Assembly (NCBI GenBank): GCA_046563655.1
Contig: CM102289.1
Span: forward strand, 4,898,001-4,962,000
Source: Yuukianura sp. NJ FZ-2021
Taxonomy: Eukaryota
Reading direction: 5' to 3'
Length of the DNA stretch: 64,000 bases
Every line of letters starts with the position of its first letter. Within the stretch, counting starts at the first letter, position 1. The notes beneath the pieces are model-generated. The model searched no databases. It worked only from the letters and a program-made list of their open reading frames with translations, and had not been told where the DNA came from. Below are positions 5,320 to 58,082 of the stretch, piece by piece. The translations under genes were made by a program, and so were the position numbers.

Positions 5320-6110
5320 AAAAAACCGAAAGTCACATTAAAAATACACGAAGACCCATACAACAAAAGATAAGTCAATTAAAAAAAACCGAAAGTCCCG
5401 TTAAATATACACAAGATCCATCCGTCCTCGCGCCCAATCTACTGCCGTATGTTCTAGCGTTTAGGAAAAAACGAAAGTCCCGTTAAATATACACGAAGAA
5501 CAACTCAACAAAAGATAAGTCAACTAGAAAAAACCGAAAGTCCCATTAATACACAAGATCCATACAACAATAGATAAGTCAATGACTACGCTCGAGATTC
5601 CGGCCTCATTCACTCGAACTGGCGCACACCGGTCTCACCAAGAGAGATTCGCACCCCTCTTTGCCCCGTGCCACCTGAACAGCTACTTGCAAGCCTCATC
5701 CGTCGTCGCGCCCAATCTACTGCCGTATGTTCTAGCGTTCAAGAAAAAAAACCGAAAGTCCCGTTATATATACACGAAGAACAATTCAACAAAAGATAAG
5801 TCAATTAAAAAAAACCGAAAGTCCTGTTAATACACAAGATCCATACAACAATAGATAAGTCAATGACTACGCTCGGGATTCCGGCCTCATTCACTCGAAC
5901 TGGCGCACACCGGTCTCACCAAGAGAGATTCGCACCCCTCTTTGCCCCGTGCCACCTGAACAGCTACTTGCAAGCCTCATCCGTCGTCGCGCCCAATCTA
6001 CTGCCGTATGTTCTAGCGTTTAAGAAAAAAACCGAAAGTCCCGTTAAATATACACGAAGATCAATTCAACAAAAGAAAAGTCAATTAAAAAAAGCCGAAC
6101 GTCCCGTTAA
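5320..6110. repeat. Diverged precursor repeats, including a ~281-bp tandem duplication related to the downstream 588-bp unit
   Basis: ATGACTACGCTCG...GCCCAATCTACTGCCGTATGTT recurs at 5582 and 5863; AAAAAACCGAAAGTC motif is repeated. Confidence 0.85.
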
Positions 6111-6112
6111 CT

Positions 6113-9100: not shown

Positions 9101-9893
9101 TTTACCACATCCCCGAACCAATGCGGATTGAGACTTTGAAACGATCTGTGCATGGACACATTCGCCAAGAAGTGATTCCGTAGGTTTCGGTTGTGGGATT
9201 TAGTATGTGTTCCTAAGTGATGGTACAGAGAAGGTTTAGTCAAAAATTTAAAGTTCATTTTACAATTTTTTGAACCAAAATTACGAAACAAACTCCAGAT
9301 TTTTTTTATATACACAAAGATCCATACGACAGAGGATTAGTCAATGACTACGCTCGAGATTCCGGCCCCAGTTCACTCGGACTGGCACACTCCGGACTTA
9401 CCGAGAGAGATTCACACCCCTCCCTGCCCTGTGTCACCTGAACAGCTACTCGCAAGCCTCGATCCGTCTTCGCGCCCAATCTACTGCAATGCCGTATGTT
9501 CCAGTGTATATGAAAAAAACCGAAAGTCACGTTAAATGTCAAGTCAAGTCTCGTTAACTCTAATAATAACACTTCTGCTGCGATATGAAAAAAACCGAAA
9601 GTCACGTTAAATGTTAAGTCAAGTCTCGTTAACTCAAATAATAACACTTCTGCTGCGCATTCAAGCAAGAGACACAGGGACTAAGTTTTTTACCACATCC
9701 CCGAACCAATGCGGATTGAGACTTTGAAACGATCTGTGCATGGACACATTCGCCAAGAAGTGATTCCGTAGGTTTCGGTTGTGGGATTTAGTATGTGTTC
9801 CTAAGTGATGGTACAGAGAAGGTTTAGTCAAAAATTTAAAGTTCAGTTTACTATTTTTAGAACCAAAATTACGAAACAAACTCCAGATTTTTT
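6113..9893. repeat. Tandem array of ~6.4 near-identical 588-bp units, each with an internal ~75-bp duplication
   Basis: Near-identical ORFs recur at exactly 588-bp spacing (6133, 6721, 7309, 7897, 8485, 9073, 9661). Confidence 0.97.
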
Positions 9894-9929
9894 CAGTATT
9901 GCATAATGAATCTGTATAATTTTGTCAAA

Positions 9930-10250
9930 GAAGTTTCAAAGAAGAAGCGTTCCGTCATGAAACATGAAGAGGAAGTGGGACTGTTGATGGCAGATATCGC
10001 TAAGGACTTTCCTCGCTTGCAGTAAATTCTAAGGTCACTTCAATTTTCAAAACTTAAGTTTTCAGCTTAGTTGACATGTTCGTGATAATGATTTGTAAAT
10101 TTTACTATTTCAGAGAGAATTTTAACATCGTCCTGTACGGATTCGGACCCAAAGATCCAATTCTAAAAAGTTTCAAGTCCTTTCTCAACGATGAGTTTAT
10201 GATTGTAGACATCAACAGACATTTTCCAAAGTTAAAACCTAAGAATGTAA
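9930..10250 (+). pseudogene. ORC2: ORC2 gene fragment
   Basis: HEEEVGLLMADIAKDFPRLQ*ILR|ENFNIVLYGFGPKDPILKSF...VDINRHFP matches the ORC2 GFNxxLYGxGSK region; in-frame stop, and no rest of the gene. Confidence 0.65.
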
Positions 10251-10339
10251 GTTTCTAAAATCACACTTCTAATACCAACCGGAAGTGAATGTATCAATTG
10301 TGCTTGATTGGAAATTTAGGTTCTGCTGAGTTTCTGGGA

Positions 10340-11700
10340 ACCGGCAATGTGACATTGGACACCAGAATCGATATAATTGGGAGCGGAATTGCCGGCTTAT
10401 CGACTGGACTTGCCCTGCACAACGCTGGATTTACTCAAGTAAGGATTTACGAACGGGACGATTGTTTTGACCGGAGACAAGGGTATGGACTCACAATGCT
10501 ACAAGGAAATACCGCCCTCAGAAGACTCGGAGTTTATGACAAGGTCAACCAGATTGACACGCCCTCCAGATCTCACTACATCTTCAACTGTCATGGCAGG
10601 CAACATTGTCGGATTCTTCGGAACCAAATTCTGGCCATCACCAACCTCTGACAAGAAGGCCAAGTACAACCTCCATGTCAGCAGACAGAATCTACGCAAA
10701 ATACTGTATGAACAACTGACACTAAAGGCACAAGGAATCGTTCAGTGGAACAAGATGTTGGATTCCATCTTCCAGTTCCAGAAGAGCCTAATAACGGTGA
10801 GGATTCGTGGGAACCTTCCTTTTCGGATGGACATTTTACTAAGGTGCAGTTGGTATTTGGTTGTGATGGGATTAACAGTTTCGTCCGTCGTCAAGCCTTT
10901 CCGGAAGATGACAATCCGCTCAAATATTTGGGAATCCTACTTGTTCTTGGTAATTCAAACATAATCAATTTAGTAAAATCACTATAACGGTAGTAATATA
11001 GAACAAAAGTACAAGCGTGTTTCTTTTTTAGGTATCACTAGGACTGATCACTACCTAAGTCAAGAACGAGTGTTTCAAACTGTGGATGGAAACACAAGAC
11101 TGTTTGCGATGCCATTCTACGGAGATGAAAGCAGACCGCATGAAAATATGATGTGGCAACTGTCATTCCCAGTGGAGGAACAAGAAGCGAAACAATTACC
11201 TACCAACTTAGATCAACTAAAAAGAAGAGTTTTAGAAATGTGTGGAAACTGGCACGATCCGATTCCATCCCTCATCCAGTCAACTAATTTGTCACTGCTC
11301 ATGGGTATCCCTACCTACGACAGAGACCCTCAACCGCCATGTCAAACTTCGAAGTCATTGGTGTTGCTTGGAGATGCTGCTCATCCAATGTCTCCCTTCA
11401 AAGGTCAAGGAGCAAATCAAGCCTTACTGGACGGAGTCTACTTTACAGATTTTTTAAGTCGTGGAGCGAGCATAGATTCCGCTATTCGTAGCTTTGAAAC
11501 TGAAATGTGGAACAGAGTTCGTGTTGGATTCCAGAGAAAGAGCAACAACTTTCCATCACCCGGGCGTCCTCGGAGGTGACTTTTTCCTTTACCGGGGAAT
11601 TGGACAATTCCTCCAAAAGTTAAAAGAAAAAGGAGTCAACAGCAGCAGTGGAGAAGCAATCGATGGCCTAATTATTTCAGAACTCAAAGGCCTCAATCTC
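10340..11700 (+). pseudogene. Class A FAD-dependent monooxygenase, frameshifted
   Basis: IIGSGIAGL (GxGxxG), GCDGINS (DG motif) and LLGDAAHPMSPFKGQGANQA (GD motif) lie in different frames; frameshifts near 10.6, 10.77 and 11.53 kb; one intron ~10950-11031. Confidence 0.8.
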
Positions 11701-15247: not shown

Positions 15248-15741
15248 CAGTCCCACAAGCAGAGTTTTTTCTACCCAGACTTCCTCCATCTGCAATTCAC
15301 TTGACCTTTGAAATTGATTTTGACCCGGACGGAGGTCACTGACCGGAATGATAATGCAAACTTGACCTCACCCGGGTCATTAGCTGTTAAATGGTGAAAA
15401 CCGGAACGAAATCGATCCAGTAGTTTCCGAGATAATTGTGCGGATGTTTTCACCATTTTACAATGGTTTTCCCTATGTCATGACGGAAAACGCGATGACG
15501 GACCGGCCTATCTTATGGACATGACAGAGAACGTGATGACAGACCGGCCTATCTTATGGACATGACAGAGAACGTGATGACGAACCGGCCTATCTTATGG
15601 ACATGACAGAGAACGTGAAGACCAATGGAGTTCCCTATGCCATGACGGAAAACGCGATGACGGACCGGCTTTCTTTATGGGGATATGACGGAAAACGTGG
15701 TGACGGACAAAAATACTTTTATAAAGTAGCTAAAGCTACTT
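15248..15741 (-). mobile_element. Second, partial copy (494 bp) of the element at 4469-4962
   Basis: Near-identical sequence from CAGTCCCACAAGCAG to the AAGTAGCTAAAGCTACTT hairpin. Confidence 0.9.
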
Positions 15742-19900: not shown

Positions 19901-22900
19901 GGAGAAGCGTTTCCAATTGGTTTGATATTAGCTTTTGGTGGATCCGTGGAATGAGTCTTATCACCCGGAGCTGAAGTGGATTTGGCTGCAATTGTTCCAC
20001 TTGGTCCAGGAACTGAGCCACTCTTGAGCACGAGTTGCTTTTCCAGAACAAGAATCCGTTGCTTCTGCATTTCAATTTCCTTCTTCAGTCCTTCATTCTC
20101 GGTAGCCATTTCTGATGTTCCAGCGACAGCAGGTCCAGGCTGACCACCAGCAGTTCGTAAATCCTTATTCTCAGACTCAATACGACTCAATCGTGCTTCG
20201 TATTGAGATTTGAGAGCTGCTTGACGTACATTGGCTTCTTCCGTGCTGGCTTCCATAGTCGATAGTTTAGTTTTCGTATTCATAAGTTCTTGTTCCTGTT
20301 CCGTTTTTTGTTGTGTGATTGCGGCCACTTTATCTCTCATTGTTTTCAATGCGACTTTGGCTCGCTCGTCTCTCTGTGCAGTGTCCTGCTTGAGAGCTTC
20401 CAAGTCTTTCTGCAGTGCTTCGTTCTGTGAAGAAAGTTCGGCGACTCGACCCTCAAGTTCAGCGATTTGTACTGGAGGAGCAACAGGTTGCTCTGTGCCT
20501 GCAGGAGTGGATGCAGAACCGGGGGCAGTTTCACTGCCAGACGCTGATGTCTCGTTAGCCTTGACGGCATCTTCGAAAGATTTTTTGTACTTTCGCGCCA
20601 AAAGTTTTATCTGCAGTAAAAAGAAAAAAGGAGTTAAAAAAAGTTATTAATTAAACTACACGTACATGTTAAGCTGCATGTAAGTGTTTACTCGTGTTGT
20701 TAAAGTCAAACCTGTTTAACGTATGCCTTTTGCTCTTCGACTTCTTCAGTCAACTGTTTCACAGACTTTTCGCTCCCTTCAAGTTCCGTCACTTTTCCTT
20801 CGAATTGTTTCTTGAGTTCCACCAGTTCCTTTTGAAGTTTCTCTAATTCAGTTGCAAGACCAGTCTTGTAGTCATTGACTCGCTTCAAATCTTCACTCAT
20901 CTTCCGGTTTTGGTCTGTCGAAGACTGAAGAGATACTTGAAGTTGAGTCACCTGACTTTGTGATGCTTTGAGTGCGGAATCCATCCGGACATTTTCAGTG
21001 TACAATTTCTTGCGAATCTCCTCCGTTCCATTCAGTTGTTTCTGCAGGTAGTCCTTCTCAGCTGTCACCTTTTTCATTTCTTCTGGATTGAATTTGTTAT
21101 TTTTCTCAATCAAAGCGTTTGCTCTGGCTCTCCATCGCGCAATGTCCTGTTTCAATCCTGTGTTCTCAGATGTAAGACTTTCCAAATCGCCTTCAAGAGC
21201 TTGGAGGCGGGAGTTGAGTGGTTCGATCGTGGACTCCGTTTCAGCCGTTTTTACTTTCATAGCCTCTAGCTGCTGAACGAGATTCTCTCGCTCTTCCCGC
21301 AGAAGCCTAATCGATAATAAATAATAAGAATTAGTCGTAATGTTAGTAATAACCAGCAATACAACGTATAACGATCGAAGATTTGCAGGCATCATACCTG
21401 TTGCTGTCTGTGAGAGCACTAAGAGTTTCTATTTTTCGCAGTAACTCCGCTGTTTTTGAAGAAGTAATCAACGACGTTTGAGACTGAGACTGTAGCTGGT
21501 TGAATTTCTCTTCCAATTCTTTGTACTGCCTCTCAGCATACTCCATTTGACTCTTGAGTCTTGCTACCGTAGATTCAGAAGCTTCTACTTTGCTATACGA
21601 AATTTCTTTCTGGCGACGCATGTAACGAAGTAGCTGTAACCCGTTAAATCAGACACAATGCTCAACCAACACAAAAATTAAAAAAAAAATATAGTCAAAA
21701 CGTTATTTTTACGTACCTGAACCCAATGCTCAGTTGACCGCGTCTTCTCTTCATCTTCGGCAAATGAAGCATCGGCTACAGAACTGAAAGAAACATCCAT
21801 ATCTGCTCCAGTAGCGCTTAAATCCAAGTTCCTCTTTCCTTCCAATTGGGCAGTAAGTGCCAAGAGTTGATCCTAACGAAGATAATTAAGTACAATTACA
21901 TTTACTTTACATTACTTTACGATTATTCATGAAATGAATGTTAACAGCTGATGATTGATTACCTGTAGAGAGGTATTGAGTGTATCCAATTCTGCCACCG
22001 ACAGAGATAGACGCTGGATTTCTTCCAATAAGCCTTTATCTCTTCCTTCACTTCCAGCTTTCAACTCCTTCAACTCTTCTTCCAGCAAAATCTTATCTCG
22101 AGATACAGTTGCCAACTCATTTCGAACGGAATCCAACTCATTCCTGATTTCATTCCGATTCTCAACAACTGAAGAATGAAAGCCCAACTCGTTTTCAAAT
22201 TTTGTTTGAAATTCTCTTGTTAGTGCTTGCTGCTTCTCAAGATCTGACTTCAGTTTTGAATTTTCTTCCTGTGCTGTCTGAAGCTTGGACGTTATTACTT
22301 GAGCCTCCCGCTCAATACGTTTCAGTTCTGCTGAGCCGGTTTCTGCCTTTTGGTTAATTTCTGCCGTCAGTGCATCTTTGTCTAACTTCAGCTGAGTTGC
22401 TTCTCGTTCAATTGTGTCTAAACGACACTGGAGATCACGAATCATGTCATCCTTGCACCGGAGTTTCTCTTCAGCCATGTTGTCAGTTGAAGCTCCAATC
22501 TGTTCCTCCAGATTCTTCGAAAGAACTTTGTATTCTTCAACACTGGATTTTAACAAAGCAATTTGTTGTTTGGATGTAATCGCTTCACGTTCCAAAGTCG
22601 CAATTTTAGTGTTGAGTTCACGTGTCTGTTGATCCTTTTCCGCTTGTAGCGTCTGAAGGGTTTGCAGCGTAGCAGCAGCATTGCCGTGCCCCGTGAGCAC
22701 CTAAAAGTAAACAAAACAAGATTAAGACAAAATTCCATTCATCTTGTGCATTAGAAGCTTAAGTTTCATAAGTTAGTTTACCTGCACTTGACCCAAAAGC
22801 TTCTCAATTTCAATTCGTTGAGCACGAATCGTTCCAGCAGCAGTTGCCAACTCAGCCTTGACCTTTTCATGACCTTCCACGGCTTCTTTAGCTTTGGCTT

Positions 22901-25843
22901 CCAATTCAGTAGTAACTTTAGTCCAAGAAGTAAAATTAGCCTTGAGCTGTTCTCCTTCTGCCTCTGTCTTTCTTCTCAATAGAACATTTTCGGCCTTGAG
23001 TGACTCCAGTTCAGCTTCCAGTTTAAGCTTGGCAGAACTGGATGCCAATTCCAAATTGTTCCTAATTTCAGCCAAATTAACTTCCAGCATCTTGCACGTT
23101 CTCTCTTCTCGCTTGTACAGTTCCAATTCGGCTTGGAGTCGACTCTTTCCGTCCCTCAGCGAATTTCGTTCAGTTGTGATAGAAGCGAGTGCTACTTCGG
23201 CTCGAGCCAATTTGTCTTGATTGGCCATAACTTCATTTCGGAGTAGCTGCGAAGTCTGTTCATGTTTGGCAACAGTAAGAGATAACTGTTTGTTCTTTTC
23301 CTCCAAAGAAGTAATCGTCTTCTTATAAGTGTCCATATTGGCAGAATAAATCTTGCTACGTTCGTTGTTGTAATCCACTTGCGATGATAGTTTTGCATTG
23401 TCAGAACGAAGTCGACTCAGATCGTCACGCAGTTTCTCCATTTGCTCTGATGCAATTTTTTCATTGGCTCGCATCTCAAATCGATACGTTTCAAAATCCT
23501 GCTTCATTTCGTTGTAACTTGCTTCAAGCTGACTGTACTTGGCTTCGGCTTCAGCTGATGAAACTGAAATCACTTCTCCCGATACTCCAAGCTTCGGTGA
23601 CTGGAGTTGCTTACCAGGACTGGCCAACAGTTGTTGTTGTCTCACTGTTGTTAGAATTGACTCTTGACGAAGCCGCATTTCTTTGAGGTCTTCCAATTCC
23701 TTAAGAACTTCCTCATAAGCAGCCTTGATTTCTTCAACTTGTCGTCCATCAGCTGATTCTGCTGCTTTCTCACGTTCTTCCGACAACTCACGAACAAGCG
23801 ACAAGAGATAAGCATTTTGAGACTGGAGTTCGTCAATGTTTCGGTATGTAACAAGATTTGAAGTGATTAGCGTTGAAGAGTCCAAAACCCCAGACAACTC
23901 CATTGCTTCTCGTTCACGATCTTCATCTTCAGCTGCGTAGGCATAAGTCCCTCGAAGATTTTCAACTTCACGTAGAAGTACTTTAATTTGATTACAATTG
24001 TCAGTCATCTGAGACTTGAGCCGACTGTTTTCTCGTTCTATAGAAGAAAGGCTTTTACGAGTAAATGCATATTCGTCGCGAATTTTAGCTTCACTGTCCA
24101 TTGATATTTCGAGTTGATTTGTAAGAGCATCAATAGTTTCTAAGCAGCGGACATAGTCTTCTTTCTGTGCCTTTATCAATGGACCTCTGATGGCAATGTC
24201 ATTCACAATGTTCGCAAGTTCGTCACGCAATCCAGCATTTTCAGCCTGAAGTGTAAGAAGGTCTTCTTGAGCCGTAGTCAGTTTGGAGTAAATTTCAGTT
24301 AGACTGTGAGTTCCACGTAAGAGATTACTCACAGCAGCGGCCGCTGGACTTAAACTTTCAATCATTTCATCCGTGAGGCCTTTTTCTTTGAGATGTTTCA
24401 GGAGTTCGTTGGCTTGTTTTAATTCTGTTTCCAAAGTGGCAATCTTTGCATCTCGAGAAGCAACTTCTTCTTGATAGGATTTCCCAGAATTGGCAAAGTT
24501 TGTTTCCAATTCGCCGTAACGGTCAGTAGCTATAGATAGAAGGCTCTGTAAGTTAGAAACAGCTGATTCCAACTCTTTGATTTTCTTAAGTGAGTCATCG
24601 ATATCTTCTTTGTACAAATTGGCAAGCTTAGCCTGAGTTTGAAGTTCAACTCGGTAGTTCTCTTCTATTTTGAGTTCCATTTCCTGGGATTCCCGAAGTT
24701 TTTGAAGGAGACGTTCGATCTGGCTCTCTTGATTAGCATTTAGAGCCCTTGCATTGACTAAAGACAACTCCGCTTGACGCAACTAAACGATAGGTTCAAA
24801 GAAATCATGAAAACATCACGCTGAGCAGTAAAAACCGCACTGATAGTTGGTAAATGTGTTTCACCTCTTCACTTTTTTGAGCCAGTTCTGCCTGGGTAGA
24901 TAAAAGGTTGGTAGTGTGATCACGTTGCATTTCAACGATTTGCGAGTTCTTTCGATCTAACTCAGTGTTCAACAGTTGCACTTGCTTGTTTACCCACTCC
25001 CGCTCCTTTTCCAATTCCTTTTCCCTGATATTTTTGTTATGTTATTCTCATTGAGTGTAATGCTTGTAATATTATGAGTTACCTGTAGTCCAGATCAATT
25101 TTCTGTGAAGTCATTTCATCGACTTTGAACAAAGCTGTAACTTTTGCTCCAGTAGCTGAGTGGAGTTGGTCTGAAAGCGATTTCTTCTCGTCAGTTAGGT
25201 CTTCAACTTCCTTAATCCTTCGTTCCAAAATATTTACCAAGCCTTCCTTCTCAGCTGCTAGAGTCTGAAGTTTGAGAGAAGCTTCGTTGAAGCTGGCTTG
25301 AATACTATATAAGAAACAGCGGTTATAACAATAGTTTCAGGAAAGGTTAGCAGCAAAAACCAAGCTAAGAACTCTCAAAATGTATTACTACTTCTACTTA
25401 CTTTTGAAGGTTTGCCTCCAGTTGATTAATTGTGGTAAGAGAGCATCGGTACTTTTCAACGTACTCCTCAGAAGTTTTCCTTTCCTTATTGAGTTGATCA
25501 TTGGCTGTATTGGATGCATCTCGAACTTCCTTCAATTGTGTTTCTAGAGTTCGAACTTGTGCTTCTGCAAAAGGATAAGAATTAAAATGCAACTGAGATA
25601 GGTGAGGTAGTGAGGTAGGTTACCGACTCTTAACACAGTGTACTCACCGTGTGCAATTCTGTCCTTCTGTTTCTGATTTATGTAACCATGTACCTTCCTG
25701 GTCAGTTCTTCAAAATTTACAGCAACTTTTGTCCTGATAGCGTCCGGAATTTCATTCCGTTCATCAGCCGTCAGAAATGAAAGCACATGGACGTGTAGTG
25801 GATCTACCACATCTTGATCCATCTCCCCACCTTGTCCTAGCAT
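16906..25843 (-). CDS. Tpr: Nucleoprotein TPR / Megator, multi-exon
   Basis: Long coiled coil with [31 protein letters not shown] and [10 protein letters not shown]; acidic region; [27 protein letters not shown]; Arg/Gly-rich tail. Confidence 0.95.
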
Positions 25844-34620: not shown

Positions 34621-36346
34621 TTAGTTAGTCTTGCCAGGTTCGCCAATTTTGTATTTGTCATATAATTCGACTATGTCGTTCACAAGCGACCTCATCATGA
34701 CCTCGGAATGAAATGGTGTTGGAGTGATTCTTAGTTTTTCTTGACCTCTGGGCACAGTTGGGAAGTTGATGCCAGGGACGTAGTGCCCCTTGACTTGGAT
34801 CAACTCCGCCGCAATTTTGAAACACAGAGCAGGATTTCCTACCTAAAATATTAACGAAAAAAATTTACTCTAAAACTATTTAGTGCCTAAAATTGGAGTA
34901 AAATACAGATAGTGTTTAAAAATAACGCATGTGCGCTCCTCACAATAACAGGAATGATGTGAGAATCGTTTTGTTCCAGCGGCAACCCAGCACTCGTCAA
35001 CAACTTTTTCAAAAATTTGACATTCCGGTGCAATTTTTGCCGCAACAGAACGCCTTCTTCGGATCTGATAACGCTGAGTGACATCAATGCACCAGCGAGT
35101 GCCATTGGTGAAATGGACGTCGTAAAAACAAATCCGGGCGCGTAACTTCGAATTGTATCGATCAGAGATTGGCTTCCAGCCAAGTACGCTCCAGCAGTCC
35201 CTAACGCCTTGGCTACAGACAAAATCATTTTAATTTTCTTTTAATTAGTTCCAAAAAATTCGCAATTTTTTAAGCCTTACCTAAACTACCAGCTATGAGA
35301 TCCATATTTTGAGTAGCGTCAACCAGTTGGCCAATTCCCGCTCCACTTTTCCCGTAAAGTCCAACTGCGTGCACTTCGTCGACAAATGTAAGAGCACCAT
35401 GCTGCTTTGCAACTGCGCACAACTCTGCGACATCCGCCTTCTCTCCAGTCATTGAGCAGAGGCTTTCGAAAACAACAATTTTGGGCCGACTGAGGTCGGA
35501 TTGACTGAGAAGTTGAGCTAAGTGTGAGGCGTCGCCATTTTTAAAAACATGTTTTGGCGCTCGACTGCTGATTATTCCTTGTAAAATAGATGCGTGGTTT
35601 TCAGAAGCCGAATAAATTTCCACGCCTGAAAGCAAATTAAAGTTTCAAAAGTCATTTTTAAAAATAGTTTTCATTTTTCAAAAACGAACCTGGAATTATT
35701 TTGCCAAGGAGGGAAATTGCCGAAGAATTTGACAAAAATCCAGAAGACGAGATGAAGGATGCTTCTTTCCCGTGAAAATCCGCTAATTCACGCTCCAGCG
35801 TCAAGTGCAGCTCTGATGTGCCACAAATTCCACGAGCTCCAGCCGACCCTACGCCATAGAGGTCAATGGCCTTACTAGAATAAATAAAAATTTTGTTCCT
35901 TTTTTTCTCCTGAGTGTTCAAAAAAAAAATTAACCTTACTGCACTGCCTGTGTCACTTTCGGGTGTCGGCTCATTCCCAGCACATCATTGGCACACCATA
36001 CAGTGATGCGCTTTTTCTTTGCCAATCCTCCGTTTTCAATGATTTCGTCGGCTTCAGGGAATGCCGACGCATCGCGATTCACGACGTTGAAAACTCGGTA
36101 AATATTCGCATCTTTCCGTTCTTGAATTTTCCTTCGCATGAATTCTTCATAGTCAAATCCCTCGTTTCCTTTCTTCGTACGGCAAAACCTGACACCTAAG
36201 ACGACAACAAAAAACGTTCAATAATTTCGGTATTTCTTTCTTTTGATTGTGTTTTGTTTATTTTGAATTATATTGGAAAGTAGGTAGGTTTAGACTAAAT
36301 TACTTGTTTCCGTACCTGCTCCTTTCAGACGCCGAAGCAATTTCAT
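34621..36346 (-). CDS. Divergent ALAS-type PLP-dependent alpha-oxoamine synthase (candidate BioF-like activity), 6 exons
   Basis: [67 protein letters not shown] (PLP Lys)..[23 protein letters not shown]. Confidence 0.9.
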
Positions 36347-36573
36347 AGTAAGGGCAGTTGCAGAGCGTGGTAAATCACTGAAGGTTGGAAACCTTTGCTG
36401 CAAGGTCAAAGGTCAAAAACCTCGTACGACACTCATCACCTTTAGTAAAAACATTGGCTGTGTGCTGGTGATCTTTGTCTGCTAGTAAAAAAAATCATTC
36501 AACTTCACTCAATTGTCATCTCCCCTCAACTTTTTATCTTAAGCGATTGCGAGAGGGAGACTCTTCGTTCCAT

Positions 36574-36618
36574 CTATTCACTTCGTGTTGCGTACATCGA
36601 GATACACGAAGTGAATAG
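36574..36618. promoter_or_regulatory. 15-bp perfect inverted repeat in the divergent promoter between the ALAS-like gene and bioD
   Basis: CTATTCACTTCGTGT-N15-ACACGAAGTGAATAG. Confidence 0.45.
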
Positions 36619-36720
36619 TTTTTAAGATTATACAATTTTAAACAAACCATAAATTATTTTTTCGAAATTATTCTTAAAGTTTCTCAAAAACTCTGGACTG
36701 TTTAGACAACCATTAAAAAC

Positions 36721-37410
36721 ATGGTTTTGATTTTTCAGAGACTTCTCACCCAAAAAATTTTAAATGTACCAAAAACACAAAATCCAGTAACAAAAATTTT
36801 TGTAACAGGAACAGATACTGACATTGGGAAAACTGTTGTTTCGAGTTGGCTCTGCCTCCATTCTCGCTTTGACTACTGGAAACCAATCTCCAGTGGATCC
36901 GATGACCTTTCGACCTCAGATTCAATGTTAGTCAAAAGTCTTGCAAAGGTCAAAGTTCATCCCGAAGTTTATACTTTTCGTCAGCCACTGTCACCACACT
37001 TGGCAGCACAAAGAGACAACGCTATAATCAGTTTAGAACAAATCAGCCTGCCGCAGAGTGAGCAACTGATTGTAGAGGGTGCTGGTGGCGTTTTGGTTCC
37101 CTTGAATAAGGATGACCTTGTGATTGACCTCATCAAGAAACTTGACCTTCCAGTGCTCCTAGTCGCCAGTTCGAAACTCGGAACCATCAATCACACACTT
37201 CTTAGCATCGAGGCGCTGAGTTCCCGTGGCATTCCAGTGCTTGGGGTCATTGTCAAGGGGAGTCCAAATCAAGACAACTGTGATGCCATTGCACATTACG
37301 GTCAAACTCAAGTTTTGGCGCAAGTGCCACATTTTGAAAACGTGACTACGGAACATCTTCAAAATTTACGCTTGACCCCAATTCTAAAAGAACTGCTTTG
37401 TTTAATTTAA
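36721..37410 (+). CDS. bioD: Dethiobiotin synthetase, intronless, bacterial type
   Basis: KIFVTGTDTDIGKT P-loop, KPISSG, LSPHLAA, VEGAGG, LGTINHTLL. Confidence 0.96.
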   Translation: MVLIFQRLLTQKILNVPKTQNPVTKIFVTGTDTDIGKTVVSSWLCLHSRFDYWKPISSGSDDLSTSDSMLVKSLAKVKVHPEVYTFRQPLSPHLAAQRDNAIISLEQISLPQSEQLIVEGAGGVLVPLNKDDLVIDLIKKLDLPVLLVASSKLGTINHTLLSIEALSSRGIPVLGVIVKGSPNQDNCDAIAHYGQTQVLAQVPHFENVTTEHLQNLRLTPILKELLCLI

Positions 37411-37473
37411 AAAACAAAGTTTTTTATTTTCTGAATTCAAAAATTTCCGAAATTCAAAATCAAAAAGTCACTA

Positions 37474-37487
37474 TTTATTGAAATAAA
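37474..37487. terminator. Back-to-back poly(A) signals for convergent bioD and bioB
   Basis: TTTATT (AATAAA on minus, 37474-37479) next to AATAAA (plus, 37482-37487) in the 195-bp gap between the stops. Confidence 0.5.
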
Positions 37488-37605
37488 AATGGCAGTGGTG
37501 ACAAGTAATCGCAGAATTGGGTTTTAGTTGGTTTAGAATTAATTTTGTAATTCTTTTGTAAAGTTGTAATTCTTTTAACTATAATAATTTTTGTACTTGT
37601 GTTTG

Positions 37606-38577
37606 TTATTGGTTCATCGCTACTTGTACTTCAGTTGTTCGGAGAGGTTCTTTTTCAAATCCCAATTTGGTGAATAAAATGTCATCTTTTTCCGGACTTG
37701 GATTCGGCGCAGTGAGTAACTTTTCTCCATAAAAGATTGAATTCGCTCCAACTAGAAAACAGAGTAGCTGCATTTCCTGACTCATACTTTCCCGCCCTGC
37801 TGACAACCGAACGTACGACGTCGGCATCATAATCCTCGCTAAAGCAATTGTTCTAACAAAGTCCATTGAATCCACTTCCGGGGAATTCTCCAATGGCGTT
37901 CCAGGGATGCGCATCAACTTGTTGATCGGAATTGATTCGGGTGGAGTCGGAAGACTAGCCAAAGTCAGCAGCATTTTGATTCTATCGTCATTCGTTTCTC
38001 CCATTCCCAGAATTCCGCCACAACAAACCTTGAGGTCAGCTGACCTCACATGCTCCAGCGTGCGAATGCGGTCTTCAAAAGTGCGTGTGGTGATGACCTC
38101 CTTGTAGTAATCCGGGGACGTGTCAATGTTGTGGTTGTAAAAATCTAGACCAGCGTCCTTGAGCGCCTTGGCTTGAGCTTCATTTCGAAGTAGTCCCAGA
38201 GTAGCACAAGTTTCGAGTCCAAGGGCCTTGACCTCTCTGACCATTTCTGAAATGGTGTTGATTTGTCTGTCGGTGGGTCCACGCCATGCTGCTCCCATGC
38301 AAAACCGAGTACTTCCTGCAGCTTTGGCTGCTTTAGCGGCCTTTATGACATCCTCTAGAGCCATGACTGGTTGTTTCTGAAGTCCCGTTTTGTAACGAGC
38401 AGACTGCGGGCAGTAAGAACAGTTTTCTGGACAACTGCCCGTTTTGACGCTGAGTAGCGTACTGACTTGGATCAGTGTCGGACTGAAGTGCTGCCGATGA
38501 GCCACTTGTGCTTCGTAAACCAATTCGGCCATTGGCAAATTAAAAATTTGCTTTGCACGGTTCAGTGTCCAGGCCAT
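37606..38577 (-). CDS. bioB: Biotin synthase (radical SAM), intronless CDS, bacterial type
   Basis: [15 protein letters not shown] (CxxxCxxC), [38 protein letters not shown]. Confidence 0.98.
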
Positions 38578-47891: not shown

Positions 47892-50800
47892 ATGAGGAGT
47901 GAGAAACATTGGATGAATGTAGTTGTCACTCTTGTGTTTGTATTGGCCAGTGAGGTCAACAGCGGCCAAGCCTTGGCAGGTTTTGATCCGCAGCGTCATC
48001 ACTTGTTGCTCTTGAGTACAGACGACCAGGAGCACTCCAGAGTCAAACGATCATTGGAAATTGAAGATGATGTTGACCTGGGAGAAATTGAAGACGAAGT
48101 TGTAAGAAATTTTTTTGGAACTGTGTATTTTTGAAAAAACGACGTTTTGTTTTCATTTCGAAAATTATTTTTAGGAACATGACTTTTACAATGAAACGGC
48201 CAAAATCTACTCATGTCATGTTTCTACAGACATTCGATACCGATATGCTAGAACACAAGTGACGTCGCGCGTCATCAACAAAAATCGCAGATTTCCTTCC
48301 GAAGTGATTTTTACCATGGTCCTACCAGAAGCAGCTTTCATTTCAAAGTTCCTAATGTAAGGTTTGAAAATCCGAGACCCAAATCTCTATGAAAATTAGT
48401 CAAAAAAGGAATTTTACTGGGAATTTTGAAAAATAGGGAAGTTGATGGAAAGGTATATAACGCCCATGTCAAAACAAAAGAAGAAGCGAAAGACGTTTAC
48501 GTCGACGCCCAGAATCGAGGTCAGGGTGCAGGATTGGTCGAAGTGAAGTGAGCAGGAAATAATAATTCAAAATTCCGTCAAGACGAATGCCTTCTAAGTT
48601 TGGTTTTATTTCAAATTTTAGCGCTCGACATGCAAACGTTTTCAATGTCAACTTGAATGTAAAACCAAATTCAAAAGTTACGTTTAATTTGACGTACGAA
48701 GAATTTCTCATTCGGAAACTCGGATTTTACGAACAAATAGTGCACATTCGTCCGGAACAGGTAACCACACTCTCAAAAAACAACAATTCAAACTTTATTC
48801 ATTTTTACTTTGTAGATTGCAGAAATTGAAGATTTTAAAATCTCAGTACGGATACTGGAATCACAAAATATCACAAGAATCCAAGTTCCAAATCTCGTCA
48901 CAAATGAAATCTTGGCATTTGAAGGTTATTCTTTTAAATGCTTTTTTAAGTTTACAACAAGTTTATACATTGCGTATTTTTTGGAAATTTTAAACAGAAG
49001 AAACTAATGTAAATGTCAACATTAGTCAACCTAGTGGAAACTACGCAATTGTCAACTGGAGACCGTCAAGAGCAGATCAGGAGTTGATGGTCAGAGATAC
49101 TGGAATCAAATTCGTTGTGCGTTATGACATTCATCATGATTCTGGCGCAGGAGAAATTTTGGTAAAATTTGAAACCTAAAAGTTCGAAAAAGAAAATTCT
49201 GCGAATTTCGATACCCGATTTTTTTTGCTTCAGTTAATGAACGGCTACTTTGTTCACTTCTTTGCCCCCTCTGATGTGCTACCAATGAGAAAACATGTGG
49301 TTTATGTCCTTGACGTGTCAGGGTCAATGTCTGGACGAAAAATCCAGCAAATGAAGCATGTCATGAGTACTGTCATGGATGACCTCAAACCAGACGACTA
49401 CTTCAACATCATTTTCTTTTCGTCAGAGTCAAAGGTAGTAAGAATTACACTCAAAGAAAACAATCCAAGGTCAAAGGTCAAATCAAACTAATTTGATTTA
49501 GGTGGTGATGCCAGCAAAATCCGCTGCTTTTGCTGAACCAATCATGGCTACTGAACTTGCTCTGCGTGAAGCTCATCAACTGCTGGCCTCACTTACTGCT
49601 CATGGTGGAACAAATATTGACGCAGCATTGAGAGATGCTTTGGCCATCACTTCTCGTGTTAAACCGACACCACAAAAAGAGGGTATTGGAACGCTTCCAG
49701 AAAATGTGGAGTCGTTGATCTTGTTTCTGACGGACGGTGATCCAACTGTCGGCGTCACGCGACCAGAAGCGATTATTTCAAACGCCAAACAAAGGAATTC
49801 TGCTAAAGTTCCGATTTATGCCATTTCGTTTGGGTTAGAACCCGATTTTGGTTTTCTCAAAAAACTTTCTCTTGAAAACTTCGGTTTTGCTCGAAAGATT
49901 TACGAAGGGGTAGACGCCGACGTGCAGATCCGTGGATTCTACAAAGAAATTTCCTCTCCACTGTTGTCAAACATCACGTTCAAGTACACAACAAATTCCA
50001 GTGTTGCAAGCGTTCGGAGGTTAACCAAACAGAATTTCCCAAGTATTTTTACGGGATCGGAAATTGTGGTTGCCGGGTACGTTCGTGACAGAAAACTGCC
50101 AAATAGTACTGCGCCTGCGCCGCTACCTCCAGCCTTCATGAGCGTCGATATTGATGCAAACGGGAGAAATGGCCGTGTGACCTTGACGGGCAATGACTTA
50201 ACGCGAAACGCGTATGACCTTATGCCTTTACGAAATAACAGTGTGACCTCTTCCCTGGCGGAAATGGAAGATGAATTTCTGGAACGATTATGGGCTTACA
50301 TCACCATCAAGCAATTGCTTGAAATTCATCCAAACCAAAATGGAACTGACGATGACGACTACATTTATGAAGATTTTGGAGAGGAGGGGCTAGAAGAATT
50401 AGAAGAAAATGAACCAATCAATGAGCTGGAGCCAAGACCGATTCCATTAGTGTCGGCTCCTCAGAACATTACAACGGCACGAGATCGTGCTCTGAATTTA
50501 GCTTTGAAGGTAAACAACACAATAAAATTAGATTCTCTCTAAATAAATATTTTGAACAAACTTTTTTATATTTTTAAGTTTTAAATTTGCCTTTTCTATG
50601 CAGTACGGTTTCGTCACTCCAATCACGTCCCTCGTTGTTGTAAAGCCAGAAGAACCGAAATTTGTCATGGACTCGAAAGGAGTCAGAGATCACAGGGCAG
50701 AGGTCACCGATGTCATCAATTTGAAAGAGGCGTCTGCGCAGATTCGTGGTCCACTGCCTCCTACTAGGGGCAACCGGATGATGCCAGCACCAAATTGGCC

Positions 50801-51862
50801 AACATATTCTTCAAGTTACGCCCTCCGGAGCTACCCTCCTGCCCCTCCTCCACGTATGATTTTGAAGCTCGAATTTGAAATTTGGAAAAAACAAAATCAA
50901 ACAACTAAGGAATTCAGATTCTTAAATTTTAAAAATTTAATTTTGTTTACAGCAAATACCGTTCAAAGAAGTACTACGTCGACAGGTTCTTTTACACATA
51001 GGGCTGCAGACCCACCGGGTTTAACAGATAAATCGAGAGCCGACTCGAGCAGCATGAGTGTAGCCGTTTCCGCTCGTTATGTTTCTCCAGCTCCTCAAGT
51101 TTTGAACAAAATGGTGGCAAATTTTGAAAATGTCCGATCCACGGCATCCCTAATGTCACACGTCCAAGCATTGAAATTGAATAATAATCAACGCCAAGGT
51201 TAACATATTAGACGCTTCACAACATTGTGCTGATGATTTTATATGCTTGAATTTATCGACTTTATCATAATTTTTCTTTAATTACGTAGTTGCAGCCATA
51301 AAGTTTTCTGGAGCAGAAAGACAAAGACAAACTGTAATGGCCAGGCACTATATGACGTTTGATGGCACAACAACCCCTGCGTCACTTACTATTCGACCGC
51401 AACAACCAATGACAAACAGACTTGCCGTTACTTGGCCATTTGGAACAGATCCTGCCGGGAAATCTTTTCTGATGATCTATGGATCCAAATATTTAGTTCG
51501 AAATGGCGATGAGGTAAAGCAGATGTAGAAAGTAAAATGTAAAAAAGTTTAAAGGCTTAAAACTTATTTTTCAACTTATTTTACAACCAGTTCAACTTTG
51601 GGCCATTGAGAGCTCCTCCATGTACTGGCGGAACAAGACACAACAGGTTCCAGGGAACATGCCAGCACTTGAGAGACTGCGTTCGACCAGAATTCCAAAC
51701 AAATTTTGAGATTTACGTCAATCAATACTTTTGTGGAATTTCGTAAGTGATGAATTTTTCAATTCCCGTTTGCATTGACCACAATTTTTTAATTTCCATT
51801 TGTTTTACATTTTGATTTGTAGACGAAACGGTGTTTCATATGCAGGCGTCTGTTGCAGTTAG
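47892..51862 (+). CDS. ITIH: Inter-alpha-trypsin inhibitor heavy chain-like (signal peptide, VIT, vWA, C-terminal clip-like 6-Cys domain)
   Basis: RYARTQVTS, LPEAAFISKF, GYFVHFFAP, DVSGSM/TNI/LTDG MIDAS, ERLWAYITIKQLL, YGFVTPITSLVVVKP; terminal C..GTC..C..FC..GVCC. Confidence 0.92.
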
Positions 51863-55601: not shown

Positions 55602-58082
55602 TTATTGTGCAACCTGAATTTTGATGATTCGTTCTCCCGGGCCAGCGGTTGTCAAATTTTCAAACGTTGGTTGGACAGAAGACGCGACGGAGTTTGGCTC
55701 CTCGCTTTTTCCGCGCGAAAAATCAAACGGCACCGAAGAGGCAGAACTCTCCGGACGACTTTCCGGGAACTCAATTCGTGGTCCAGGTGAAGTTGGATCT
55801 TGATCAATGGGAATCACGCGTTCACCAGGTTTCGTCTGCGCAGTCGCACTTGTCGTAGCCCGAGGCTGAGTAATCGAAACTTCGTGATTGGTTGATCCAT
55901 GCCCATTTGACGTCACTGGTTTCTTCTCAGTAAAAACTTGATGAACTGTGCTAACGTTTTGGTAGACTTTCGGCTCTGATTTTGGTTCTGCGATTTGATC
56001 TTCCAGAAACTTAACATTGTTCAGAGCTTCTTCGATTTTTCTGGCTCGAGTAGTTTCAAAACCATCCGAACTGGTCCGATTGGTTCCGGATTGATCGGAC
56101 GACGTGGCCCGAATTGTTCCGGACACTTCCGAAGCAGGCGAGTCCTTCTGTTGAATTGGGACGTGGTGTGGATTTTTGGCCAATTCGTCATGTTTTTGCC
56201 TGGGGGCGGTGACTACGAGAATGCCCTCTGATGACAAGTTGCATTGGACGTCAGTGGCTTTGACATCGCGCGGGAGAGTGTACTTGCGTTTAAAATGCCG
56301 AGTGATGAAGCCATGTGGATCTTGTTTAGCTTCATGCTTAGCTTCAATCTCTATGTAATAATCAAAAGTCCGCACGCTCAGTTCCTCTGGCTTAAATTCA
56401 TGAACGTCAAGAATCACCTGAAAATTCAAAACATTTTTATAAGTAAAATAAATGATAATTAATTTTAATCAAAATATTGCGATTAATTATTTGCTGAAAT
56501 TCGAACCTTGAAATTTTCCGAATCTTCCTGAATTTCCGGCGGAGTCGTCGGACTCTCCAGAAGCGAAGTTTTTCCTAATCTTCCTGAATTTGCAAACTCA
56601 TCAAACAGAGCCGACTTTCTATCGAATTCTTCCGCCAAAGTTGAAGTCTTTCCGCGCGTTTTCCAAAATGGCAGAGGATCAAATTCCGGAAAAGCAGTAA
56701 AGTGTGGTTCAAACATGCGCAGAAGGCGCGAGTGTCTGAAATCGTCACGGTCACGTGAAAATAGGCCAGAAGCAGACTTGTCAAACTCTTCCTGTGCTTT
56801 TCGAATCTCTTCGCGAAAAGCGTCTTGTCTCTCTGTTCGCCTTGCCAAAAGGTCAGACGCTGACTTGTCAAAGGCTTCACGCGCTGCTCTCATTTCTTGC
56901 AAAATTTCGTCTTTCCGATCAGCCCTCCTTTCGAAAATTTCGGCTTTTCTTTTTTCAAATTCATCCTTGGCCTGTTTCAATTCCTCGCGGAATTTATCAG
57001 TCGAGGTCACATGGGTATCCTTAACCGAAGATCCAAGTTTGTTGTCGTACGTCATTTTTTCAAATTCGGCGGCAGTTGATGTTCTCTGGCTTCCGTTTTG
57101 AGTGAGAGCGGGATGTCGTGGGGCGGTGACATGGAGGCGACCATCGGCTGTGAAGCTGCATTGCACTTCTTCTACTTTGACGTCCGCTGGGAGCGTGTAT
57201 TTGCGTTGAAAATGGCGGGAAACTACACCGTGCGAGTCTTCTTTTTCTTCATGCTTTCCCTCGATTACAATTGTGTTGTCCACTGTTTTGACGGTTAATT
57301 CCTCTGGAGAAAATTGTTGGACGTCAAGAGAAACCTTCAGAGCAAAAAAAAATGATTTCAATCAGCAAAAGTTTTTTTTTCAAAAATTGAAATTTTTTCT
57401 TTTACTGATTATGCGTGTATCTCATGTGATTATGCGTTTTATATCTGTGTAATTATCGGTAATAAAATTTGAAATTGAGTTTCAAAATGAACGCGGCGAG
57501 CTTAGTGTAATCAAGCTGACGAAAAAATTGATACTGACTGGACTAATGTTTGATCCAGATTAGCGCCTAGATTATAAATTTTATTCTACAATGGAATCGA
57601 TCGATTGAAACCAAGATCACAGAGTGACCTTGAAAGCTAAAACTTTCCCTTGGTGCGTGTTTATGAATGTTTAAAACCAATTTAAAAAGAAGGATGAAAT
57701 AAATCAAAGTGTTTACTACCTTGAAATTGTCCTTGTCATAATGAATTCCTAGTCCAGAGGAGTACTTCCTAGCGATGTGATCAGAGTCCATGATCATTAG
57801 CGACGCTGGATGATAGCGGTGGTTTTGGAAGCGCCTCGGAAGCAACTGAAATTCATCGTCTAGAGCTCCCTGTGTCCTGGAAGAATCCAGAAAAGTTGTT
57901 CCAAATTTAGTATTTTGTCCAGGAGTTCCGAAGGTGTTGGTGCTTTCGAGACTCTGAGCAGCACACTTCTGCTCAAACTCCTTTTTCTGCCTCTCCATGA
58001 CTTCCCAACAGTCCGAAAAAAATTCGTCACGGAAGAACGAGTCTCGAGCTCGGAGCGGAACCATTGTTTTTCTCAAGGTCAT
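55602..58082 (-). CDS. Large small-heat-shock protein with two alpha-crystallin domains, 3 exons
   Basis: FKVSLDVQQFSPEELTVK..RHFQRKYTLP..and FKVILDVHEFKPEELSVR..RHFKRKYTLP; helical linker; repeated IxI-type motifs in the tail. Confidence 0.9.

Follow-up and report, generated by a model that had tools for sequence, protein, structure and literature searches.

Adjacent bacterial-type bioD and bioB genes for biotin synthesis in an animal genome

A convergent bioD–bioB pair and its enzymes

Positions 36721..38577 of the window, by which we mean the whole 64,000-nucleotide stretch of DNA analysed here, hold two complete, intronless, bacterial-type genes in an animal genome. The first, bioD (36721..37410, + strand), encodes in a single uninterrupted reading frame a 229-aa ATP-dependent dethiobiotin synthase, assigned through TIGR00347 and PF13500 and aligned to the E. 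coli and Francisella BioD structures, and the second, bioB (37606..38577, − strand), likewise without an intron, encodes a 323-aa radical-SAM biotin synthase, assigned through TIGR00433, Radical_SAM, and BATS. The genes are convergent, tail to tail, with 195 bp between their stop codons. Functionally, they specify consecutive steps, with BioD closing the ureido ring of 7,8-diaminopelargonate (DAPA) at the expense of ATP and CO2 to give dethiobiotin, and BioB, a radical-SAM iron-sulfur enzyme, inserting sulfur to give biotin. Both proteins score well above the thresholds of their families: BioD reached 133.7 bits against TIGR00347 (curated cut-off 83.3), which places it in that family, and 198.6 bits against PF13500 (cut-off 27), while BioB reached 397.4 bits against TIGR00433 (curated cut-off 225), which places it in its family as well, and carries both the Radical_SAM (83 bits) and BATS (99 bits) domains.

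The residues expected of active enzymes are in place. BioB matched the E. coli BioB structure 1R30 at 437 bits with every cluster ligand aligned, such that its C49/C53/C56, C93, C124, C185, and R257 correspond in the alignment to E. coli C53/C57/C60, C97, C128, C188, and R260; these residues are invariant in all 15 aligned sequences, and the YNHNIDT motif is also retained. Following the E. coli literature, we take the CxxxCxxC cysteines to be the [4Fe-4S] ligands and the remaining three cysteines and the arginine to be the [2Fe-2S] ligands. In BioD, the GTDTDIGKT P-loop, K54 of WKPISSG, EGAGG (E119-G123), and the aspartate of SDS are invariant across the 11 aligned sequences and match the E. 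coli enzyme (1DTS), from which we presume the roles of the GxxxxGKT P-loop, the substrate lysine, and EGAGG to carry over. The peptide KIFVTGTDTDIGKTVVSSWLCLH makes up BioD residues 25-47. An earlier note on this DNA had described both coding sequences as intact, intronless, and equipped with their catalytic motifs, and the reading frames, family scores, and alignments all agree with it. The same note had set the standalone bioD apart from the fused BioDA of fungi and plants, and this distinction holds: a profile search found BioD to be a single-domain protein with no aminotransferase domain, and its score against 4A0G, the DTBS/DAPA-aminotransferase fusion of plants, was just 33.3 bits, versus 74-81 bits against bacterial BioD structures, so that it is not a DTBS and DAPA aminotransferase fusion of the BIO3-BIO1 type.

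BioD differs from its bacterial relatives at its N-terminus, where 24 codons (36721..36792, + strand) encode the extension MVLIFQRLLTQKILNVPKTQNPVT, with three basic and no acidic residues. This extension is missing from all nine other aligned BioD proteins (eight bacterial, plus that of Planococcus citri), and among the best 150 representative BioD matches no best-matching stretch begins before query residue 21. A 231-aa BioD relative (P0121), by comparison, has an N-terminal extension too, likewise starting MVL. From its basic composition, the 24-residue extension may be a mitochondrial presequence, which would parallel the situation in plants, where both terminal biotin steps are mitochondrial. 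BioB has no N-terminal extension. Upstream of its ATG lie 26 open codons preceded by ttttcag, and an upstream coding exon that could supply a presequence was considered and rejected, as a search of 700 bp turned up no plausible first exon running from ATG to GT. If BioD is mitochondrial, BioD and BioB might sit in separate compartments.

Host genomic setting

To the left of the pair, on the − strand, lies a metazoan-type 5-aminolevulinate synthase (ALAS) gene (34621..36346) with six exons, traced by searching the window with six ALAS proteins (tblastn), and five GT-AG introns of ~52-120 bp. TIGR01821 was the top family for all five exon ORFs, the organism-named sequences among the best 120 matches were all animals, and the best solved structure was human ALAS2 (119.8 bits, versus 106.8 for Rhodobacter). 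We considered whether this gene could be an intron-bearing bioF in disguise and rejected the idea, since TIGR01821 wins and identity is ~28-43% to the BioF proteins of L001 and L002, the two named bacterial loci that come closest, versus 40-60% to animal ALAS. Evolutionarily, its placement shifts between trees and its branch is extremely long: in a FastTree of 121 rows its partner, at weak support, was a tardigrade, and a quick mixture-model tree put it outside insects, while a tree constrained to unite it with insects had a likelihood above that of the quick tree (p-AU 0.87), and the finished careful tree placed it within a 17-row insect group (92/99). On the ALAS tree, the host would likely be an insect.

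To the right lies a + strand gene with VIT and VWA domains, resembling inter-alpha-trypsin inhibitor (48175..51200), in several exons, of which profile matches identified two VIT (PF08487) ORFs (48175-48357 and 48393-48548, both + strand) and one VWA ORF (49180-49488, + strand). Given correct assembly, host genes therefore stand on both sides of the pair, ALAS 374 bp to the left and the VIT/VWA gene 9.6 kb to the right. Elsewhere the window contains TPR, IST1, P450, and HSP20 genes, and the VIT, P450, and TPR genes are split into exons; together with the five introns of ALAS, this is the intron-dense neighborhood that the earlier note had recognised. The nearest cluster to the P450 exon is labelled 'Arthropoda', a label known for only five members. 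All 84 ORFs of at least 45 codons between 38.8 and 48.3 kb were without a Pfam match, and tRNA and Rfam scans of the window returned no match.

The 195-bp spacer (37411..37605) is AT-rich (GC 0.236) and contains AATAAA hexamers, all of them consensus matches only, for bioD at 37482-37487 (+ strand) and for bioB at 37479-37474 and 37428-37423 (− strand). The 374-bp interval between the start codons of the divergent ALAS and bioD genes (36347..36720) is probably a shared promoter region, to judge from this arrangement, and it includes a perfect 15-bp inverted repeat (36574-36588 / 36604-36618). A search for transposon or repeat borders flanking the pair gave low-complexity matches and this one 15-bp hairpin only, and such borders were rejected. 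Compositionally, bioD and bioB have GC3 values of 0.39 and 0.47, inside the host-exon range of 0.32-0.49, and their relative synonymous codon usage correlates with that of host exons at 0.52 and 0.48, versus 0.30 and 0.00 with the bio genes of L001/L002. The spacers around them match the AT-richness of host non-coding DNA.

Origin among intracellular bacteria and relation to known transfers

Both proteins trace to bacteria of intracellular type. A careful IQ-TREE of BioB used 62 of 200 rows, including 17 free-living proteobacteria from the related loci listed as outgroup, and placed the window protein in a 45-row clade (100/99) with Wolbachia, Mesenet, and MAGs labelled Holosporaceae and Rickettsiales, outside of which all 17 free-living proteobacteria fall; a FastTree on all 200 rows was concordant. 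Within this clade, the window BioB pairs at 100/99 with P0001, a 323-aa BioB that is 80% identical to it, and the pair is sister (99/94) to a 7-row clade with Parthenolecanium corni. For BioD, the careful tree was built from 60 of 160 rows, and the window protein falls there in a clade of 52 rows, supported at 100/100 on a stem of length 2.5, that also includes Wolbachia, Rickettsia, Midichloriaceae, Lawsonia, and Holosporaceae, and in which it joins P0121 (63% identical by local BLASTP, 60% in alignment A2) at 67/77; a clade with P. citri BioD was not rejected (p-AU 0.41). Placement inside the BioD clade is weak, and the donor is therefore nameable only to group level. At that level, the trees bear out the earlier note, which had pointed to intracellular bacteria of the Wolbachia and Rickettsia type and had proposed trees as the check, in that both proteins nest with intracellular bacteria (BioB 100/99, BioD 100/100), and apart from free-living proteobacteria.

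Pairwise searches give a similar picture. By phmmer against the BioD ORFs of the fetched loci, window BioD scored 230 bits with a Holosporaceae MAG and 212 bits with a Rickettsiales-labelled MAG, then 177.5 bits with a Telmatospirillum-labelled locus (L009) and 54-94 bits with the other 39 matching loci. No fungal or plant name occurred in the 19 (BioB) and 20 (BioD) organism-named rows of the best 120 matches, and no Cardinium-labelled sequence was present among the BioB and BioD matches listed. The highest amino-acid identity to bacterial-looking matches was ~72% for BioB and ~60% for BioD, which means that no known living symbiont has genes of which these are a copy. A one-residue insertion and a C-terminal tail in BioB are common only to the window and P0001, and, as P0121 shares an extended BioD N-terminus, we infer from these shared extensions that P0001 and P0121 are probably eukaryotic orthologues.

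The natural bacterial comparison is BOOM, the biotin operon of intracellular bacteria (PMC7750005), within whose clade both window proteins nest. L001 and L002 carry bioA-bioD-bioC-(bioH)-bioF on the same strand and bioB in divergent orientation, whereas the window has only bioD and bioB, in convergent orientation, and four of the six genes are missing. A tblastn of all ORFs of at least 100 codons from four bacterial loci against the window recovered only bioB, bioD, and a bioF-ALAS similarity that is family-level (about 26-43%); within the window there is thus no remnant of bioA, bioC, bioH, or bioF, and no further bacterial gene. The original operon arrangement has been broken, as the earlier note had supposed, and the window genes differ also in having eukaryotic-type signals and codon usage. 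They are BOOM derivatives, not the BOOM operon itself.

Transfers of bio genes into insects are documented for a whitefly, mealybugs, scale insects, and an ortheziid, in the available text of four reports (PMC10158165, PMC13099577, PMC6167482, and PMC7750005). These sternorrhynchans (Bemisia tabaci, Planococcus citri, Maconellicoccus hirsutus, soft scales, and Insignorthezia insignis) hold transferred bioA, bioD, or bioB, and the window resembles them in that bacterial, Rickettsiales-like genes for terminal biotin steps sit between host genes in the nuclear genome of an animal. According to the available part of PMC10158165, the bioB genes of scale insects and whitefly form one cluster, which is not so for their bioD, a pattern that our trees repeat. 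The differences are that window BioB is 69% identical to that of P. corni and window BioD 52% to that of P. citri, that the window pair forms a separate lineage with P0001/P0121, that P. citri BioD does not have the 24-residue extension, and that the window genes are adjacent and convergent, with no bioA in the window. Among cyst nematodes and root-knot nematodes, HgBioB is likewise a bacterial bioB in an animal genome, said to be of rickettsia-like origin, and, as far as the available text of PMC12842512 goes, these animals have the final step only, with no bioD, whereas the window has both. Nematode bioB lies outside the hemipteran clade in the accessible portion of PMC10158165, and window BioB carries Q24 and V44 at polymorphic positions that are P/A24 and R/Q44 in HgBioB (excerpted text of PMC6909392), though numbering may differ. 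A further difference from the nematodes is the ALAS tree, in which the window sequence falls among insects. We know of no ALAS gene in nematodes, whereas the window has one. A nematode host, an idea raised by the short introns and by the bioB known from nematodes, is not supported, given the retention of bioB alone in those animals, the mismatch at the HgBioB positions, and the ALAS gene. The fused BIO3-BIO1 and mitochondrial BIO2 of plants and fungi catalyze the same two reactions as the window pair, from which they differ in that window BioD is unfused.

Probable retention as host genes and its meaning

We consider it very probable that bioD and bioB are bacterial genes that were horizontally transferred into the animal nuclear genome and retained there as working host genes. 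Each would form its own eukaryotic transcription unit, monocistronic and convergent, with its own AATAAA and host-like codon usage, and both would be transcribed and enzymatically active in vivo. BioD would have acquired its basic 24-residue N-terminus, which may direct the enzyme to mitochondria, and the bioF, bioA, and pimelate-arm steps outside the window, and with them the DAPA, would be supplied elsewhere in the genome, by a symbiont, or by food.

That an endosymbiont fragment was joined to a host contig by chimeric assembly or contamination could be suspected from the intronless, bacterial type of the genes and because symbionts are often sequenced along with their hosts; it is nonetheless extremely improbable, as four of the six operon genes are missing and the other two are arranged unlike those of L001 and L002, no other bacterial ORF neighbors them while host genes stand on both sides, the best bacterial-looking identities speak against a copy of known symbiont DNA, GC3 and codon usage resemble the host's, the spacers equal host non-coding DNA in AT-richness, and the BioD extension is absent in bacteria. 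We also give very little weight to a real nuclear insertion that is silent and decaying, like many Wolbachia-to-host insertions. The genes have gained no introns and BioB has no added targeting sequence, which would suit such an insertion, but the frames are open although the nucleotide sequences differ by 35-41% from those of the named bacterial genes nearest to them (identity 0.65 for bioB and 0.59 for bioD), and in neutral simulations of 5000 replicates the frame was still open in only 0.8% (bioB, and hence lost in >99%) and 6.5% (bioD) at 10% substitutions, and in 0% and 0.6%, respectively, at 20%. Also against decay, all catalytic residues checked are retained while the remaining operon is cleanly gone, and a relative at 80% (BioB) and 60-63% (BioD) identity keeps the same lengths and extensions.

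Slightly less remote, and still unlikely, is that the genes are expressed in the host while one or both have stopped making biotin and taken on a different function, as has been proposed for inactive BioB alleles of a cyst nematode. In the available text of PMC6909392, some HgBioB alleles of Heterodera glycines, the cyst nematode of soybean, are inactive and yet common, so intactness alone is no proof of activity, and the window has no bioA or bioF near the pair to feed the pathway. Set against this are the full catalytic sets of both enzymes and the keeping of two consecutive steps side by side, which a working two-step pathway fits better than moonlighting does. The whitefly paper of Ren et al. 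reportedly describes a fitness role. The hemipteran cases are reported as expressed in the accessible part of PMC13099577.

Beyond retention itself, we offer a more speculative scenario, which we regard as doubtful though less so than the rival readings above: the window and P0001/P0121 would represent a host lineage beyond the whitefly and scale-insect cases, bioD and bioB would have been linked since a single transfer, their tail-to-tail layout would be a BOOM junction fragment, and the BioD presequence would have evolved afterward. From a circular or tandemly repeated BOOM, a junction fragment would give bioB facing bioA and bioD, with bioA lost later, and such a segment would also explain why animals have repeatedly retained exactly bioA, bioD, and bioB. 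With the presequence, the penultimate biotin step would come to lie in the organelle, which is also its place in plants. As an alternative, an 11-row BioB clade (100/98) may reflect one ancient transfer common to several sternorrhynchan lineages.

To our knowledge, animals are unable to make biotin, which reaches sap-feeding insects via mixed host-symbiont pathways, and the transferred bioA, bioD, and bioB are among the best-studied bacterial genes turned useful in animals. Transfers of this kind have already been described in sap-feeding Hemiptera, and the locus is at most a further member of that kind. In the available text of the published accounts we find no match for two terminal genes that adjoin each other and have a native gene as neighbor, for an N-terminal peptide added to BioD, or for a diverged second lineage with these forms. 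Should the host be a pest, bioD and bioB could be specific markers or knock-down targets, because they have no animal counterpart. If it is neither a whitefly nor a scale insect, the transfer would have a wider range than is known so far; otherwise, the locus would be a well-resolved example of a known thing.

Identity and surroundings of bioD and bioB

The earlier note had placed two intact biotin-synthesis genes at 36721..38577, and both were found exactly there as uninterrupted ORFs: bioD (dethiobiotin synthase, 229 aa) at 36721-37410 on the forward strand, and bioB (biotin synthase, 323 aa) at 37606-38577 on the reverse strand, convergent and tail to tail with 195 bp between them. Functionally, BioD scored 133.7 bits against TIGR00347 (cut-off 83.3) and 198.6 bits against PF13500, and among solved structures it matched the Francisella (81 bits) and E. 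coli (74 bits) enzymes. BioB scored 397.4 bits against TIGR00433 (cut-off 225), contained Radical_SAM and BATS domains, and matched E. coli BioB (1R30) with 437 bits. In the 1R30 alignment, C49/C53/C56, C93, C124, C185, and R257 of the window BioB correspond to E. coli C53/C57/C60, C97, C128, C188, and R260, the iron-sulfur ligands, and these columns did not vary across a 15-sequence alignment. The BioD P-loop GTDTDIGKT, the lysine of WKPISSG, and EGAGG were likewise invariant (11 of 11 sequences), bearing out the prior statement that all catalytic motifs are kept.

The DNA around the two genes is animal. A Pfam scan of 116 of the 183 stop-to-stop ORFs of at least 75 codons (those omitted by hand were mostly overlapping antisense frames) revealed IST1 (2649-3777), nucleoprotein TPR (20709-25041), a class-I/II aminotransferase-fold gene (34890-35644), VWA (49180-49488), P450 (52001-53393), and two tandem HSP20 (small heat-shock protein) genes (55605-57361, reverse strand), each of these last two extended at the C-terminus by a long low-complexity stretch. 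To the right of bioB, none of the 84 ORFs of at least 45 codons between 38801 and 48259 had a Pfam match, and the next recognizable gene there encodes VIT and VWA domains, from 48175, and is split into exons. The aminotransferase-fold gene beside bioD is, judging by its homologies, 5-aminolevulinate synthase (ALAS): TIGR01821 was the top family for all five exon ORFs, all organism-named rows in the top 120 matches to exon 3 were animals (53-60% identity), and human ALAS2 (119.8 bits) outscored Rhodobacter ALAS (106.8 bits) among solved structures. Five exons were mapped between 36181 and 34627 by tblastn of six animal ALAS proteins against the window, and an additional first exon, starting at 36346 and followed by a 120-nt GT-AG intron, was read directly from the sequence; the remaining introns are ~52-89 nt. 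Start codon to start codon, ALAS and bioD are thus 374 bp apart, on opposite strands, and both biotin genes lie outside any ALAS intron. Between ALAS and bioD, ~100 bp ahead of the bioD start, also lies a perfect inverted repeat (36574-36618) whose 15-bp arms enclose a 15-nt loop.

Elsewhere in the window, a split gene at 10289-11576 (forward strand) encodes a group-A FAD-dependent monooxygenase (PF01494; PRK07538, 63.7 bits), with Pseudomonas flavin monooxygenase 2RGJ as its best solved structure (46.9 bits); because animals rarely carry this type, the gene may likewise have a foreign source. A tandem array at ~6100-9950 comprises at least six copies at 588-bp spacing, each with a 75-bp internal duplication (97-98% identity) and minus-strand ORFs without a Pfam match, and a related 281-bp repeat occupies 5419-6110. 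The array and the monooxygenase gene are flanked on either side by a 41-bp minisatellite (4700-4929 and 15479-15708, 5.6 copies each, ~10.8 kb apart).

Bacterial relatives and the broken operon

Among the best 120 BioB relatives, 19 were organism-named: 10 Wolbachia, one Mesenet, one Bartonella sp., six MAGs labelled Proteobacteria, Alphaproteobacteria, Gammaproteobacteria, or Acinetobacter, and a sole animal, the soft scale Parthenolecanium corni (69%). The 20 organism-named rows among the best 120 BioD relatives were nine Wolbachia, three Rickettsia, Jidaibacter, Midichloriaceae, Mesenet, Lawsonia intracellularis, three MAGs, and the mealybug Planococcus citri (52%). The top matches were P0001 for BioB (323 aa, 80%) and P0121 for BioD (231 aa, 63%), and neither set of named rows held a fungal or plant name. 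A further BioB match, P0002 (417 aa), carries an internal duplication of ~90 residues and was omitted from the trees. In a bacterial scan with one genome per species (80 loci listed of 599 confirmed matches), the top two among the loci listed were a Holosporaceae MAG (L001, 69%) and a MAG labelled Rickettsia typhi (L002, 68%), followed by free-living proteobacteria at 56-63%. The window BioD scored 230 bits to that of L001, 212 bits to that of L002, 177.5 bits to that of the Telmatospirillum-labelled locus L009, and 54-94 bits to those of 39 other loci with BioD inside the fetched flanks, a drop from L001 and L002 to the other loci that mirrors the gap in the BioD tree.

Evolutionarily, a careful BioB tree (IQ-TREE, site-heterogeneous model, 62 of 200 rows) set a 45-row intracellular-type clade (branch supports 100/99) apart from 17 free-living sequences. 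Inside this clade, the window BioB paired with P0001 (100/99), the pair was sister (99/94) to a 7-row clade (100/97) including P. corni, and an 11-row clade enclosed both (100/98); a FastTree of all 200 rows agreed. For BioD, the odd-length locus ORFs L009, L016, and L052 were left out, and FastTree was applied to 160 rows, 60 of which also went into a careful tree. The window BioD fell within a 52-row clade (100/100) whose stem measures 2.5 changes per site; inside that clade, its pairing with P0121 had only 67/77 support, and a clade joining it with P. citri BioD was not rejected (p-AU 0.41). With the BLASTP and maximum-likelihood check proposed in the earlier note thus run, the endosymbiont-type origin that it had suggested is upheld for both genes.

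An operon-remnant search of the window by tblastn, with all ORFs of at least 100 codons from four bacterial loci, returned only bioB, bioD, and family-level bioF similarity to the ALAS exons (~26-43%), with no remnants of bioA, bioC, or bioH. In L001 and L002, bioA, bioD, bioC, and bioF (named by NCBIfam) share one strand, a 215-221-aa ORF without an NCBIfam name sits at the expected bioH place, and bioB is divergent, whereas the window has bioD next to bioB in convergent orientation, so any original operon arrangement has indeed been broken, as first supposed. Loss of bioC-bioH-bioF alone would leave the two genes divergent, and more than deletion is therefore needed: joint integration of two fragments would fit, as would one fragment spanning the join of a circular or tandemly repeated copy, with bioA lost later. 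In L001 the bio operon is succeeded (6977-8958) by two ORFs, one Fic-like and one resembling an APH(6) phosphotransferase, each scoring far under the curated cut-offs, which fits the mobile, mosaic neighborhoods described for BOOM, the mobile biotin operon of obligate intracellular bacteria.

Signs of residence in the host genome and derived features

Compositionally, GC3 was 0.39 for bioD and 0.47 for bioB, and 0.32-0.49 for twelve host exons. Codon usage (RSCU) of bioD and bioB correlated with host exons at 0.52 and 0.48 and with the L001/L002 bio genes at 0.30 and 0.00, respectively; a single host exon against the remaining ones gave 0.47-0.78. Like non-coding host DNA, the spacers are rich in AT (GC 0.24-0.35), and consensus AATAAA matches lie 71 nt past the bioD stop, within the 195-bp spacer, and 126 and 177 nt past the bioB stop on the opposite strand of the spacer. 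The start-codon contexts are AAAAACATGG and GGAGCCATGG. Nucleotide identity to L001 is 0.65 for bioB and 0.59 for bioD, a divergence that is in part already bacterial in origin. In neutral simulations (5000 replicates), the frame stayed open in 0.8% (bioB) and 6.5% (bioD) of replicates at 10% substitutions, and in 0% and 0.6% at 20%. P0001 and P0121, differing from the window proteins at 20% (BioB) and 37-40% (BioD) of amino acids, are diverged yet full length, which argues for constraint after the two carriers split. We read composition, signals, and open frames as signs of long residence and use.

BioD begins 24 residues ahead of the bacterial start, with an extension (MVLIFQRLLTQKILNVPKTQNPVT) of three basic and no acidic residues. 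Its P0121 counterpart (29 residues, six basic, one acidic) also starts with MVL, and the extension is absent from all nine other aligned BioDs, P. citri included; among the best 150 matches from 1.84 billion representatives, none had a best stretch beginning before query residue 21. The extension looks like a mitochondrial presequence and is a putative one. BioB has no N-terminal addition, and an upstream coding exon was sought with no credible candidate; it shares with P0001 one inserted residue (LLRNE / LLKNE) and a C-terminal tail with AMNQ / ALDQ as its last residues.

Host lineage and documented transfers

Based on ALAS, the host animal is probably an insect. Placement shifted between analyses: FastTree grouped the window ALAS with a tardigrade, a quick mixture tree put it outside insects, a constrained insect clade reached a likelihood above that of the quick mixture tree (p-AU 0.87), and the finished careful tree put it inside a 17-row insect group (92/99). 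This ALAS (34621-36346, reverse strand) is extraordinarily divergent: its terminal branch measures 1.8-4.7 changes per site, and its identity to 120 animal ALAS proteins reaches 53-54% at best. It is also short ahead of its conserved core, and it might be a fast-evolving paralogue instead of the housekeeping copy. The BioB tree, with the window protein and P0001 sister to the P. corni clade, agrees with an insect host, as does the published pattern in which scale-insect and whitefly bioB cluster together and their bioD do not (PMC10158165). Named hemipteran proteins are not close to those of the window (P. corni BioB 69%, P. citri BioD 52%, Bemisia ALAS exon 3 53%).

Fitness in whiteflies was reportedly studied by Ren et al. 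Transferred bioA, bioD, and bioB are described from Bemisia tabaci and other whiteflies (PMC6167482) and from mealybugs and scale insects (PMC10158165, PMC7750005), transferred bio genes, with bioA and bioD expressed, from the ortheziid Insignorthezia insignis (PMC13099577), and bioB alone from plant-parasitic nematodes (PMC6909392, PMC12842512). Among the papers listed for springtails, tardigrades, rotifers, or oribatid mites, none was relevant to biotin synthesis together with horizontal transfer. Overall, the ORFs, animal flanks, match lists, and trees confirm the original observation and support its interpretation, with the sequence evidence favoring a domesticated transfer in which an animal genome, probably that of an insect, acquired the last two genes of biotin synthesis from a BOOM-type intracellular bacterium. 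The locus would belong to an already documented type of transfer, and the species itself is possibly already covered by that literature.
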